Positions 8,041 to 49,170 of a stretch of DNA of 64,000 bases are shown here, in pieces. Made by a program: the position numbers and the translations under genes. Position 1 is the first letter of the stretch; every line of letters starts with the position of its first letter. The notes under the pieces were generated by a model. It ran no database searches. It saw only the letters and a list, made by a program, of their open reading frames with translations, and was not told where the DNA came from. Source of the stretch: Octopus vulgaris (Eukaryota). The stretch is from assembly GCA_951406725.2 (NCBI GenBank), contig OX597815.1, positions 22,692,001 to 22,756,000 of the forward strand, read 5' to 3'.

Positions 8041-8771
8041 GAATTAACTCCGAAATTGGTCCAATACGGTAATAACGAATTTTTTAGAAATTTCTATCGG
8101 TTTGTTTCGAGATGCATAAATTATAATTGACAATTAATTGACAATTTTTGTCTTTTTTTCGGCATATTTGGCATTAGAATTTTTCTTTTGCCCTTACATT
8201 GTAAATTATTTATAAATTTAACCTTTAAAGGTATTTTTTGATATGCTGGCCATTGATGAAATTTTTTTCCCGAAAACAATTTTATCCTACATTAGTTATA
8301 AATTTGAATAGTGTTCACTTCCGGATTCTATCACTCTGTGAAAGTTTCTAGTTCGAATCACACGTGTCTCGAGACGTGCCGAAGATTTTCTATTTTGGAT
8401 ATATTTGGGGTACTTAGGTCTGCTCAGGACTTGGTGTTTGCTTTTTCCATGGGTATGAGTAAGTATTTCACTTATACCTCGCGTATTTGCCGCTGAAGAG
8501 GAGAAAATTCTTATGAATTAACTCCGAAATTGGTCCAATACGGTAATAACGAATTTTTTAGAAATTTCTATCGGTTTGTTTCGAGACGCATAAATTATAA
8601 TGGTTAATTGACAATTTTTGTCTTTTTTTTCGGCATATTTGGCATTAGAATTTTTCTTTTGCCCTTATATTGTAAATTATTTATAAATTTAACCTTTAAA
8701 GGTATTTTTTGATATGCTGGCCATTGATGAAATTTTTTTCCCTAAAAAAATTTTATCCTACATTAGTTATA
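8041..8771 (+). mobile_element. Partial-tandem (about 474-bp period) pLTR/retrozyme-like element
   Basis: 8041-8300 is near-identical to 8515-8771, with a hammerhead-like motif at the junction (8493-8535). Confidence 0.6.
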
Positions 8772-8793
8772 TATATATATATATATATATATA

Positions 8794-9400
8794 CTAGCAG
8801 TATCGCCCGGCGTTGCTCGGGTTTGTAAGGGAAATAACTATATAAGCATTTTTAGAGAGTTATTGCCAAAAAATAGCAAAAAAATGCATTAAAAATGGGG
8901 AAAAAAAATGATGGTAAATTTTTTTTTAAATCGATGACTCATCGTAGACATTTTTAGAGAGTTACTTCCCTTATAAATTCGGGCTTTCTTAGCCATTTTT
9001 GTTTGGGTGTCTTCAAGCCATGAAGTCGTTGTTCTAAAAGAACGCTGGTCTCCTTCATAACGCATTACGACGTTGATTTCTTTACACTCCCTTCCCCACA
9101 GCTTCACGAGGGAGGGAAGGGGGAGAAGCAAACAGTGCAGCTGTGAGCGTGGACACCAACTCCGCCGCCATCGACACACGATGCATTTTAGGCATTAAAA
9201 TGGAATAAAAAATGATGTTAAATTATTTTTAAAATCGTAGACTCATCGTTGACGCGCGCTAATAGTCAGACGGGCTCGATATGAATCACGACTATAAGAT
9301 ACCCGAATTTGGTTAAACTGCACCGCAAAATGTGGGAGGAGTTAGGAATCTAAATCGAAGGGGACAGACACTCACACAACTAGAGTTTTATATATATAGA
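8794..9400 (-). mobile_element. Non-autonomous Helitron
   Basis: Minus strand begins TCTATATATATAAAA and ends with GC hairpin CCCGAGCAACGCCGGG followed by CTAG. Inserted between A and T in a (TA)n tract with no TSD. Confidence 0.8.
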
Positions 9401-9441
9401 TATATATATATGTATAAGGGTGGAAAGGAACACACGAGTTG

Positions 9442-10175
9442 ATATATATGAAAAAACAAATCAAAAATAGAAAATGCTAAGATAATTTTATAATGAATCT
9501 TTCAGTACCGGTTTCGGTCATTTTGAGACCTTTTCAACTGTAACGATTAAATAATTAAATTTAGAAAAATTAGAAGAAAAGTTTTTTTAAAAGAATATTT
9601 CTATAGTAGTGTTCAGATATAAGTAGCATTCTGCCTTTCTCTGACTCCCTTGTTTGCACTTGTGTGTTCGGGGTCGTTGTGAGTTCTTGGTAGGGTAGGT
9701 GAAGAATAAGGAGGCTGATATGGAGAGGGGGCGGGGAAATCTGGGAATGCCTTGATGGTCGTATTGAGTTCTTGGTAGGGTAGGTGAAGAATAAGGAGGC
9801 TGATGTGGAGAGGGGGCGGGAAATCTGGGAATGCCTTGATGGTCGTATTTTGAATACGACCATCAAGGCATTCCCAGATTTCCCGCCCCCTCTCCACATC
9901 AGCCTCCTTATTCTTCACCTACCCTACCAAGAACTCACCACGACCCCGAACACACAAGTGCAAACAAGGGAGTCAGAGAAAGGCAGAATGCTACTTATAT
10001 CTGAACACTACTATAGAAATATTCTTTTAAAAAAACTTTTCTTCTAATTTTTCTAAATTTAATTATTTAATCGTTACAGTTGAAAAGGTCTCAAAATGAC
10101 CGAAACCGGTACTGAAAGATTCACTATAAAATTATCTTAGCATTTTCTATTTTTGACTTGTTTTTTCATATATAT
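9442..10175. mobile_element. About 730-bp palindromic element (inverted pLTR-like arms)
   Basis: Arms are reverse complements around GGTCGTATT-TTG-AATACGACC (loop 9850-9852). The left arm has an extra ~85-bp tandem duplication (9681-9765 / 9766-9849). Confidence 0.8.
10077..10114 (+). ncRNA. Hammerhead-like motif with variant core (mirror copy 9503-9540 on minus)
   Basis: cag-TTGAAAA-GGTC(tcaaaat)GACC-GAAA-CCGGT-A-ctg, with palindromic ACCGGT. Confidence 0.5.
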
Positions 10176-45924: not shown

Positions 45925-47429
45925 TATTTACGGTGAATTAAAACGGAACTTTCAGCTTTTGTACCCTGACTATAAATTTTTATTTGTAAATCATCATCAT
46001 GGGTACATTAGGCTACGTAACTACAGATTTACACAAAAACCTAAAAATACTCGGTTTCACGAAGAAAGAGCAAAAGAAACTGACACATATTCTCCAAATC
46101 CAGTCTATGGCTGGAATAGTGAAAATTTGTAAAACATTTCAAAGATTCTCCATCTGAGATTCTTTATGTGAACAGACGCACACGCTTGGCTGCATGCATC
46201 AATAGCTCAACCAACACACCGATACAAAGACCGAGAATTCTCTTAACTCAAAAAGTCTTGTCGCTTTGTTTGCAACTGGATTGACTCTTCAGATGAACTT
46301 AAATCTCAAAGAAAAGCACATACATACATACATACATACATACATACATACATACATACATACATACATACATACATACATACATACATACATACATACA
46401 TACATACATACATACTTTTGAGATCTACGCAGTTGAAAGATTATCTGAGAAAATGTAATTGTTGAATTTCAGATCGGCCCGAATTAGCAGGCCTATAATC
46501 AAAGGCATTCAAGTTCTGATCGACACATTTTATGTCCAAGCATTTGAAGGAGATAAAACTGTTATGTCTCGAGCAACGGAATACTGGCTTCCCTCATTAT
46601 ATCCTCTGTGAGTGTGTGTGTGTGAGTCTGTCTGTCTGTATGTATGTCTGTCTGTCTGTGTATGTGTGTCTGTTTGTGTGTGTGTGTGTGTGTGTGTGTG
46701 TGTGTGTGTGTTTGTGTGTGTGTGTGTGTGTGTGTGTGTGTGTGTGTGTGCCTATGTATATGTAAATTGGCTGTCTGTTGGACATTGCATATCTAAGACG
46801 ACATTATCCAAATGCCAGACACTTTTCAATATGGCAAAGTGCAATTTAAGAAATATTTAGCTGTTATTTCTAGAGGGTCAAACGACTACGTAGAAGCTCC
46901 TTCGTGTGGTAGATAGGTTAGATTAATGAAAATACTAAACCAGGTGTTTCATAAAAAAATTATGATTTTTAATACCGATGAAATTGTAAATTGTATGTGT
47001 GTGTGTGAGTGAGTTAGATGTGCGTGTTCGTAAATGAGATGGGAGCAATAAATAGAAAATAGGCTGGTCTTTCCCGAGTGTTTATTGTGATTCTTTATCT
47101 ATATCTCTACGTCTATCACTATCATACGTCACCACCGATATCGAAATCAATACCTTATATACACGGATACGGATATAAGTAATCAGAGCTCTGTAAACGT
47201 GATACAAAACTTGACATATAGCCGAAATGATTTGGCATACAGAAAGACAGGCATTTAGAATGACTCAAAGATATTCTTGCTTCATTGTTAAACTTCTTTT
47301 CCTTTTCTTTTTTTTTTTTTTCTCTTTTTTTATTTTTAGTCAACAGAGAAGTGACGGCGCTTTTTCAACGAATGAAGTCACTTGTCATCTCCTGCATGTT
47401 AACGTTTGAGTAGAGGGAAAAGGTATGAT

Positions 47430-48340
47430 AAGGGAGCAATTTTGGAGGACAAAAATCGAACAAACTGTCCCGTATATTGTTTTGGGGTTTACATACAAGT
47501 TTATGTGGAAGAGAGATCGAGTGGTCTTGTGTAGAGATAGTATGCAGCTCTGTTGGTTTAGAAGGGTAAAAGCTGTTGCGATAGTGATAGATGTATTAGA
47601 GAGAAAAGTATCTAATTGATGCCATATGTTGGTGAATCTTTGTTAATCATCGAATGACCTTTTTCGTGAGTTTCGGTCCAGTATCTTTGTAGTAACACGA
47701 CCCTAGATATGTGAATAGCATCATAATGTGGACTGCATTTGTGTGTTTTTAGAGAGTCCCTGGTTGCCCACAGGTATTCAGCTTAGCATAGTGCTTCTCA
47801 GGACAGACAGTCTAAAAGTTATAGCTGATATAATATAAAAAACAATTCCTTTCGCTGAAGTTTTTCATTGCAGTAATGAGTCACGTAGAGAGCGGGAAAC
47901 CGATAGTTCTGGTTATATGTGGTTTGGGTGGGAATCACGCTATATAATTGAGGTGGTATCGCTATCTACATCACTTTTGAGATGTATGGAATGAGAGTGA
48001 TAGGATGGTGATAGATACAACCAGTACTATTCATTGGAATGTGACACCGCTACCTGTTTCCATCAGTTGAATGTAGAAAATGAAAAATTGAAAAGCTTAG
48101 AGTTTGAGACAGGCGCTGAATGGGGCGCGACTTGCTTCAGCGAGAGAACGTTGGGATTAATGACCTTGTTGGAGTGATGGGAGCCATTTTCTTTGTGGCG
48201 AGTATTTGAGGGTCTGGAAAGGGGTTTTGTTATATGTTCCTAATACTGTATTAGAAGCATAGTGGGCATCAAATGAGGTGACTTTATGTATTTAGAGAAT
48301 GCCATGTTTATTGGAGTAATAAGGAATAAACAGATTCTTC
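47430..48340. pseudogene. Highly decayed LINE APE-endonuclease-like fragments
   Basis: Plus strand GGIAIYIT at about 47953 resembles the APE GGGVAIY motif. Weak APE-like traces on the minus strand nearby. Confidence 0.35.
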
Positions 48341-48374
48341 AAAGTTAGTAAAGATCTTTTTGAAAAGTTTTGAC

Positions 48375-49170
48375 TAAAGTACCATACGAAATACAAGCGT
48401 GATACAAGAGACAATATACCTATCAAAAATGCACAAACCACTCATAAAGTGCATTATATGAATCAAATTCAAACAAACTATAGAATACATAAACACATTA
48501 TCAAACACCCCATAAACAAAATACAGAGTGTGTTACACTAAACCATGAAATAACATTGATAATATACACCGTCACTAAAATTCAAAATTGTATTAATAAC
48601 AAAACCACATATATAACTCACGAACAAGTTACTAATGACCAGTGTAGTTTATAAATTCCTCTTGAGTCTGACTTATATCGGTGATGCAAGTAGAGCACTC
48701 TCCCTTCAATTCACTGTATACTTAAAAATGAGTAATTGCAATGTACAATATATCATAACACAAAGCAAAACTAGATGGCAATTCATTAGTGGGCAATATA
48801 TCTATACTTTATAGAATTCCTTAGAAGACAGGTGATTATTGATGGAAGCAATACTCACAACACAATACAAAACACACTGATAGCATTGACTAGTCGCAAA
48901 TAAAAATAAATACCTAATTGATAACGTACAAATCTACTTCTCATAGTTCGAATTCCGGTAGTAATAATGCCTACATAAATCATGGGAACATTGCCTACTA
49001 TAAATCGGCAGCAACACATCAGTAACACTTCATCTTGTTGATGGAACAATAAAAGTCCGGAAACGTTGATGATGTACTTAGGAACTTTACTGTTCCAGAC
49101 AAACGTCACATTTATACGAAAATATCGGAAGAAAAACGTGCTAAAATAATTAAAGTGAAACAGAGGTATT
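48375..49170 (+). mobile_element. Penelope-like element 3' remnant: GIY-YIG endonuclease plus pLTR with decayed hammerhead
   Basis: About 48640-48703 translates SVVYKF...YIGDASRAL (GIY-YIG VVY...YIGxTxRxL). 49030-49072 reads tcatc-TTGTTGA-TGGAAC..GTCCG-GAAA-CGT-T-gatga. Confidence 0.65.

Follow-up and report, generated by a model that had tools for sequence, protein, structure and literature searches.

We analysed a stretch of 64,000 nucleotides (nt) of Octopus vulgaris DNA (contig OX597815.1, positions 22,692,001 to 22,756,000, numbered here from its first letter and called the window) and found in it 12 type I hammerhead-like motifs in 11 elements, which together comprise 4,038 bases or 6.3% of the window, figures affected by the approximate boundaries of several elements. 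Very probably, the elements represent the 3′ ends (pseudo-long terminal repeat regions) and short derivatives without open reading frames (ORFs) of several endonuclease-bearing Penelope-like element (PLE) families, mostly similar to the Hydra clade and joined by families with minimal hammerheads of the Neptune/Poseidon type. The motifs, the architecture of the elements, a bias toward (TA)n tracts and the family letters of two families were observed directly. An earlier note, made from the letters of this stretch, had proposed a dense population of non-autonomous PLE-derived, retrozyme-like families. A PLE origin was well supported by motif type, (TA)n targets, tandem and inverted copies and tails, and the claim of many families at high density also held for the window, three families being abundant in public runs.

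Hammerhead-like motifs and their controls

Motifs were named by the position of their core (8493, 9537, 10080, 10485, 16719, 17141, 17363, 17755, 22675, 40649, 41563 and 49035) and were assessed with three descriptors. A strict type I descriptor, in which up to two core mismatches were tolerated and for which local di- and trinucleotide shuffles served as controls, gave 20 matches in the window, five of which scored at least 6. Matches at this score averaged 0.02 in dinucleotide and 0.17 in trinucleotide shuffles, and a count of five was reached by none of 60 shuffles of either kind. About 10 loose matches with two mismatches were obtained per shuffle, and the reversed window gave two matches at a score of at least 6. 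With a relaxed descriptor, which admitted long stem II arms and variant cores and was tuned after the motifs had been seen, there were eight matches, all scoring at least 9, against a shuffle mean of 0.06 to 0.08 (reached by none of 200 shuffles in either of two sets). A third scan, for which GAAA plus a stem III palindrome served as anchor, yielded 14 matches, five at a score of at least 12 compared with 0.11 expected (0 of 100 shuffles); its matches were retained if supported by architecture or by the other scans, and AT-rich ones were discarded. Observed counts far exceeded those in shuffled sequence in all three scans, a comparison that the earlier note had put forward for the whole genome, and the motif set is largely confirmed as real and above chance.

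Discarded as likely chance were the AT-rich match 57924+, which scored at least 12 in the third scan, as well as 26726+, 7462+, 63749-, 60574+, 23594+ and other low-scoring matches. A weak hammerhead-like candidate at 61087- (61030 to 61090), with a C4 core, a 7-bp stem II and a mismatch in GAAA, fell within the chance range. Pattern scans of metagenome, prokaryote and viral contigs found 0 loci.

The shared order of parts and the stem pairings described in the earlier note were recovered at 10 of its 11 positions. At 17194+ the pairing ccac/gtgg had been mis-parsed: the core of that parse had only 6 nt, and the actual motif spans 17136 to 17241, with its core from 17141, a parse backed by variants of its family. 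Motif 22675- (22531 to 22679) had been overlooked. The core that had been called CTGANGA-like was exact in only 3 of the 12 motifs (8493, 10485 and 41563). The published U3-A8 variant was present in two more (9537 and 10080), both within one inverted unit, so that CUGANGA or U3-A8 was satisfied in 5 of the 12 window copies. A U3.G8 core was found in 22675 and 40649, and other departures in five motifs (16719, 17141, 17363, 17755 and 49035).

Two anatomical types could be distinguished. Type A (17363 and 41563) is the classical minimal hammerhead, with an extra base after A9, a short stem II and ACGT; 49035 probably belongs to this type and is the weakest case of the set, with no repeat architecture and no (TA)n within 3.8 kb. 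Type B (8493, 10485, 16719, 17141, 22675 and 40649) has a palindromic stem III of 4 to 5 bp closed by a loop of 0 to 1 nt, with stem II arms as given in the table. The two U3-A8 motifs (ACCGGT) and 17755 were intermediate between these types. Stem III self-pairing was calculated at -6 to -11 kcal/mol in 7 of 9 segments tested and at -1.7 kcal/mol in two ACGT segments; strong self-pairing of this kind would fit cleavage as a dimer.

Element architecture and family-level evidence

The elements were generally unrelated, as had been claimed, except that those of 17363 and 41563 were related (77% over 52 nt). Upon self-comparison of the window, partial tandem and/or inverted copies were found in 6 of the 11 elements, tandem copies in two and inverted copies in five (elements 9442, 16625, 16876, 17535 and 40279). 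The 8041 element contains a direct repeat (8041-8300 / 8515-8771, 96%), the 5′ copy of which starts inside stem II, 25 nt upstream of its predicted cleavage position, and the 9442-10175 element has an internal 85-nt duplication. One-sided tails were seen in three elements and measured 47 nt (40497-40543), about 53 nt (17535-17587) and about 67 nt (16764-16830, orientation uncertain). Tandem and inverted copies and tails of this kind belong to the PLE architecture described in PMC8557442. A (TA)n tract was located within 300 nt downstream of 9 of the 11 elements, compared with 16 to 17% of 5000 positions drawn at random (binomial P about 4e-6; the 300-nt threshold was picked after the fact). 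Counted by motif, the description of the population as mostly flanked by (TA)n was correct on the downstream side (within 300 nt in 10 of 12), whereas such tracts were present upstream of only 5 of 12.

The 474-nt unit of the 8041 element folded strongly on the hammerhead strand (z of -4.4, versus -1.6 on the other strand; 100 shuffles each) and reached -6.4 when the motif was removed. For the 361-nt unit of the 40279 element, z was -4.2 in sense and -3.2 in antisense orientation and -0.5 minus the motif region. Among 63 of 86 background segments the mean z was -0.3 and the lowest -2.9, and none (0 of 63) reached -4. The 16719 element formed a hairpin on both strands (z of -10.8 and -12.1), the 10485 element had a z of -2.3, and the seven remaining elements were unremarkable.

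Twenty public runs with four organism labels, represented by contigs only, contained part of 8041-10700. In four runs (three organism labels), contigs were aligned to 16633-17484 at 80% likeness, and 17,665, 17,665, 11,962 and 3,343 contigs were obtained. Summed contig depth, which is not equal to copy number, was 10^5 to 10^6 over three motifs, compared with 29 to 79 for single long contigs in run X2, and was confined to 200-nt units, dropping by orders of magnitude at their edges. This region holds very abundant families. The 17363 family was relatively deeper in one run presumed to be of RNA, a difference that was not taken as evidence of expression, and ends did not pile up at any position, a signal that contigs would not reveal. 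The family percentages given here come from 40 of 96 variant rows, among which 16633-16860 was not represented, and leave out copies below 80% likeness, for instance those of the intact 41563 type.

In the 17141 family, G5 was restored in 77 to 88% of depth. Position 4, which is C in the window copy and in its inverted twin, was U in 21 to 51%, the family majority being C4. The T-A pair of the window copy was replaced by C at 17152 (83 to 90%) and G at 17220 (75 to 86%), a stem II mismatch was repaired by G at 17222 (87 to 92%), and a stem I wobble was converted to a Watson-Crick pair by A at 17240 (94 to 96%). The one compensatory pair and the two restored pairs are suggestive of a selected fold. 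In the 17363 family, U4 was restored in 97 to 99.5% of depth and position 6 was U in 92, 91, 97 and 98% of depth in the four runs, with which consensuses of loose ends agreed; the family majority therefore has a U6 core, which is likewise found in 49035. The U6 majority of the 17363 family runs counter to the canonical family consensuses expected from the earlier note. In the arm 16720-16748, other family copies differ in their letters, yet the two arms of the window copy match each other, which suggests that one of its arms arose as a copy of the other or that it belongs to a subfamily whose changes are compensatory.

Table 1. Positions of hammerhead-like motifs, their elements and the repeat families of the window
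Feature	Position	Strand	Description
Motif 8493	8487-8546	+	exact core, 6-bp stem I, 26-nt stem II arm; stem III a 5-bp palindrome with 1-nt loop; AUA site at 8540
Motif 9537	9503-9540	-	U3-A8 core, 3-bp stem I, ACCGGT stem III, GUA site
Motif 10080	10077-10114	+	second copy of U3-A8 motif
Motif 10485	10391-10491	-	exact core, 6-bp stem I, 70-nt hairpin stem II arm, ACGTACGT stem III, GUC site; element spans about 10206-10570
Motif 16719	16658-16730	-	C4 core, one additional base before GAAA, 31-nt stem II arm, Hydra-type ACTC-A-GAGT stem III, GUU site; stem I belongs to a 44-bp inverted repeat
Motif 17141	17136-17241	+	core 17141-17147; 9-bp stem II (17148-17156 / 17216-17224) around a 59-nt insert (77-nt arm); ACAATTGT stem III, GUA site
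Motif 17363	17359-17394	+	minimal; extra A, GAGC/GCTC stem II, ACGT stem III
Motif 17755	17717-17758	-	A9C, 6-bp stem II, weak stem III, CUC site
Motif 22675	22531-22679	-	U3.G8 core, 122-nt stem II arm, ACAGCTGT stem III, GUC site
Motif 40649	40643-40688	+	U3.G8 core, 14-nt stem II arm, ACCATGGT stem III, GUC site
Motif 41563	41559-41593	+	canonical minimal; exact core, extra A, ACGT, GUU site
Motif 49035	49030-49072	+	degenerate minimal; U3 and U6 core, ACGT, GUU site
Element	8041-8767	+	partial tandem; 474-nt ORF-less unit; 3′ end passes into (TA)n
Element	9442-10175		head-to-head inverted pair (98%) of an element of ~315 nt; (TA)n at both outer ends
Element	16625-16830	-	very abundant hairpin element carrying 16719
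Element	16876-17270	+	older inverted pair; inverted copy without stem III
Element	17275-17484	+	very abundant short element carrying minimal hammerhead 17363
Element	17535-17862	-	48-nt inverted 5′ piece, tail of ~53 nt
Element	22470-22720	-	boundaries approximate; carries 22675
Element	40279-40857	+	inverted copy and partial tandem (40417-40857); 361-nt ORF-less unit; 47-nt tail at one end only
Element	41488-41682	+	(TA)n-flanked; akin to the 17363 element
First SINE-like family	2459-2729, 12365, 16374, 18534, 24058, 38147, 50947, 53660
Other two SINE-like families	35424-type; 35876-type

Penelope-like origin and competing explanations

Minimal hammerheads of PLEs have been described as numbering thousands per genome, heterogeneous and mostly solo, with inverted pairs 100 to 700 bp apart, U3-A8 variants and, even when dimeric, little activity (Cervera and de la Pena 2014, PMC4209133). 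The window motifs resemble them in type I order, short stem I, the extra base after A9, ACGT and U3-A8, as well as in solo and inverted-pair occurrence and in the presence of many unrelated families per genome, and 41563+ is almost identical to the Acropora row in Fig. S3 of that paper. In contrast, the U6 family majority (17363) and C4 (17141 family and 16719) are absent from the rows of that paper examined, among which there is no cephalopod. The density found here (12 in 64 kb) would exceed the 2,000 to 9,000 per genome reported there if the window is typical, an extrapolation that is weak for one selected window.

Elements of the Hydra clade prefer (TA)n and carry a hammerhead 35 to 150 nt before the 3′ end, with loops 2 of 3 to 10 nt (Craig et al. 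2021, PMC8557442). Of 27 Hydra families listed there, 20 are Repbase entries; nearly all target (TA)n, and Hydra-1_Obim comes from Octopus bimaculoides. The window elements share with this clade the hammerhead position, a palindromic stem III of 3 to 4 bp with a loop of 0 to 3 nt, (TA)n targets, inverted 5′ copies, tails (published at 30 to 40 nt) and an Octopus member, and when compared by eye, stem III of 6 of the 12 motifs had a form found in the Hydra rows (actc/gagt, acag/ctgt, acca/tggt, acaa/ttgt). They differ from it in that stem II arms measure 26 to 122 nt against loops of 3 to 10 nt and in that no ORF is present, and Hydra-1_Obim and the 17141 element had just short words in common by eye. 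The preference for (TA)n is common to Hydra, Neptune and Naiad and is therefore by itself not diagnostic of the Hydra clade. An origin from Naiads, which in Octopus target (TA)n and have a "half core", was rejected, as their 3′ ends by eye were unlike the window elements. In the last 150 nt of Naiad_Ovul and Naiad_Obim (PMC8557442), a U6-type core word, a stem of 4 to 6 bp, GAAA and a near-palindrome were seen by eye; although these elements have been described as free of hammerheads, their ends possibly carry a degenerate one.

Natural core variants are known, namely U3-A8, U4C and A6C (slow in Mg2+, favoured by Mn2+) (Perreault et al. 2011, PMC3088659; PMC7151607). A6U does not occur in the main text of either paper, whereas here it marks a very high-copy family; a search for literature on U6 hammerhead cores, from which subscription journals were mostly missing, found no description. 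A CYGANGA descriptor with loops of up to 98 nt is already in use (PMC13481778). In an equally limited search, nothing on octopus or cephalopod hammerheads was found beyond Craig et al. 2021. The repeat annotation of O. vulgaris (PMC13282606) comprises 31 recently active Penelope-like and 893 unclassified short interspersed nuclear element (SINE) families, and the words "hammerhead" and "ribozyme" are absent from the portions examined of its text and that of PMC8967140.

Several results weigh against a PLE origin. Rfam gave no hammerhead among 150 of the 324 matches listed for the window or for three element-sized sequences, just low-complexity and hairpin noise; PLE minimal hammerheads, for their part, were detected by descriptors and not by Rfam. 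No PLE domain (reverse transcriptase [RT] or GIY-YIG) was found by Pfam in any of 239 window reading frames of at least 55 amino acids with little microsatellite, in which just RT pieces of long interspersed nuclear elements (LINEs), one helix-turn-helix (HTH) fragment and noise were detected, and a window search with PLE protein motifs returned nothing convincing. With no PLE protein remnant in these frames, no element could be tied to an autonomous parent; a missing PLE ORF is, however, what would be expected of truncated or non-autonomous copies. Five of the 11 elements showed neither a tandem nor an inverted copy, and the 16625 element has its tail-like stretch on the 5′ side of the motif, its stem I being simply the inverted repeat. 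Five window motifs had 0 matches in the PLE consensus supplement of PMC8557442, and the stem II arms of 70 to 122 nt contrast with the 3- to 10-nt loops of published Hydra hammerheads.

It is unlikely that the ORF-less 474- and 361-nt units are retrozymes. Animal non-LTR retrozymes, which Li, Clavereau and Pollet (2026, bioRxiv 10.64898/2026.07.22.740005) argued to be non-autonomous PLE derivatives in a sample that included no mollusc in the part consulted, likewise comprise ORF-less units of 170 to 500 nt with low GC, a type I hammerhead, PLE ancestry and frequent monomers (see also Cervera and de la Pena 2020, PMC7229834, the consulted part of which does not mention octopus). Terminal redundancy indeed delimits units of retrozyme size with a GC of 32% and 46%, stem III palindromes self-pair strongly in 7 of 9 motifs tested, and the 474-nt unit combines an exact core with a strong, strand-biased fold that outlasts removal of the motif and is matched by no background segment. 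However, no element of the window (0 of 11) has two complete hammerheads on the same strand, which is the working definition in the bioRxiv study, and neither dimers nor arrays of complete motifs occur; in that study, just 1 of 9 dimers cleaved. The 361-nt unit in addition combines a tail of the PLE kind and an inverted copy with a U3.G8 core, a two-strand fold and a z of -0.5 minus the motif region, and 8 of the other nine elements showed no global fold (z above -2.3) or equal folding on both strands. Since the window also lacks a PLE ORF, the term retrozyme is unproven. The two units are the best retrozyme candidates in the window, and non-autonomous, as the earlier note had called the whole population, fits these 2 of 11 elements, on account of their terminal redundancy, and may or may not extend to the rest. 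Its further label of retrozyme was not borne out in the window, several cores being non-canonical, one of them at family level.

Rather unlikely is the opposite reading, in which every element is either the plain end of an autonomous PLE truncated at its 5′ side or a single copy with an internal deletion, and self-standing non-autonomous families do not exist. Most minimal hammerheads of other animals are solo and have been ascribed to truncated PLEs (PMC4209133), but none of the 11 elements extends back into a recognisable ORF, contig depth is restricted to 200-nt units with its fall of orders of magnitude at the edges, and the 474-nt unit is structured over its whole length. For the weakest motifs (16719, 17755 and 49035) we also considered hairpins like those of SINEs or of miniature inverted-repeat transposable elements (MITEs) that fit a loose pattern. 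Each of the three deviates from the core, shuffles do give about 10 loose two-mismatch matches, 16719 requires an extra base before GAAA and has a terminal inverted repeat as stem I that folds on both strands, and no family letters for 16633-16860 were among the 40 of 96 variant rows listed. Such an origin is nevertheless improbable: stem III of 16719 is identical to that of five published Hydra families (PMC8557442), 17755 combines a 6-bp stem II with the architecture of PLEs, and both score above the shuffle range. Hand-tuned descriptors are loose, but that all motifs are chance matches is hardly credible, as the observed counts were reached by 0 of 120, 0 of 400 and 0 of 100 shuffles and compensatory change is seen at family level.

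Under the preferred reading, that of PLE ends and their short derivatives, several points are inferences, namely the clade of the PLEs, the protein that mobilised them, the way they were copied and whether their hammerheads cleave or have lost this ability. A PLE RT-GIY-YIG protein encoded elsewhere would nick (TA)n, and reverse transcription might begin at either of two closely spaced sites within the element RNA, hence the optional tail of 47 to 67 nt. Frequent early stops or template switches would then produce truncated, partial-tandem and inverted copies, the hammerhead being carried along with the element 3′ end, and its palindromic stem III would suit dimer cleavage on tandem transcripts. 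Two internal start sites have been found to explain the tail, and PLE insertion in vitro was unaffected by hammerhead mutants, its main substrate being unprocessed RNA (Frangieh et al. 2024, PMC11167929). By analogy, internal start sites and an unprocessed substrate may account for the tails, the start of the 8041 copy and the amplification of U6 and C4 families. As that copy starts 25 nt upstream of the cleavage position, its template would have been uncut there, and if cleavage is not required for copying, damage to the core (U6, C4) need not have kept a family from very high copy number.

Setting of the window and meaning of the elements

The window consists for 15% of simple repeats at a GC of 31 to 42% and is animal DNA rich in microsatellites, with LINE fragments and several SINE-like families. 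An RT fragment at 10706-11140 (+) had five best protein matches of 63 to 82% identity, and its closest named relatives were three proteins of the octopod Argonauta hians (58 to 70% identity), in keeping with an octopod host. This CR1-like fragment lies, together with a (TA)n and a (TG)n tract, between two 100% identical copies of a 157-nt direct duplication (10571-10727 / 11575-11731), which is either a recent duplication or an assembly artefact. An LINE RT remnant at 4666-5447 has a second copy (84%) at 62480-63269, and a zf-RVT fragment, also a LINE remnant, is located at 13230-13556 (-). The three SINE-like families have about 8, 6 and 4 copies, and hammerhead scans found none in them. Further inverted-repeat or hairpin elements, some TA-flanked, lie at 20844-21310, 21854-22397, 22283-22362, 49259-49458 and 60571-60681; they held no convincing hammerhead and may be either MITE-like or PLE inverted ends. 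An HTH fragment at 45574-45738 (-) (E of 0.001), inside 55-nt inverted repeats (44723-45929), is a probable Tc1/mariner remnant. At 27600-28400 (-), a region that Pfam did not name is presumably a broken piggyBac-like transposase C-terminal region, judged by eye from motifs in its translation. No tRNA was found by ARAGORN.

The elements are most probably PLE 3′-end debris and non-autonomous derivatives bearing known hammerhead types. Three points are new here: a very abundant family has U6 in its majority, hammerheads of the Hydra type carry long stem II arms, and the motifs are dense. A wider proposal, speculative and as a whole rather unlikely, is that octopod genomes harbour in the order of 10^5 hammerhead-bearing non-autonomous PLE derivatives, perhaps the densest load of any animal, which would form a good part of the Octopus "unclassified SINE" (PMC13282606). 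In their top families, ribozymes of non-canonical form (A6U, U4C, stem II arms of 70 to 120 nt), missed by standard descriptors, would have become fixed; these would be attenuated or dependent on metals, or else would serve without catalysis as folds that the PLE protein recognises, and at least one family (the 474-nt unit) would be a circular-RNA retrozyme.

As the general phenomenon has already been published, the gain is chiefly for transposon and ribozyme specialists. PLE hammerhead families are extended to an octopod, in which their density may be unusual, and the motifs offer a handle for classifying short octopus repeats. The U6-majority family, standing beside related copies with an intact core, provides a natural test of whether PLE hammerheads need to cleave.

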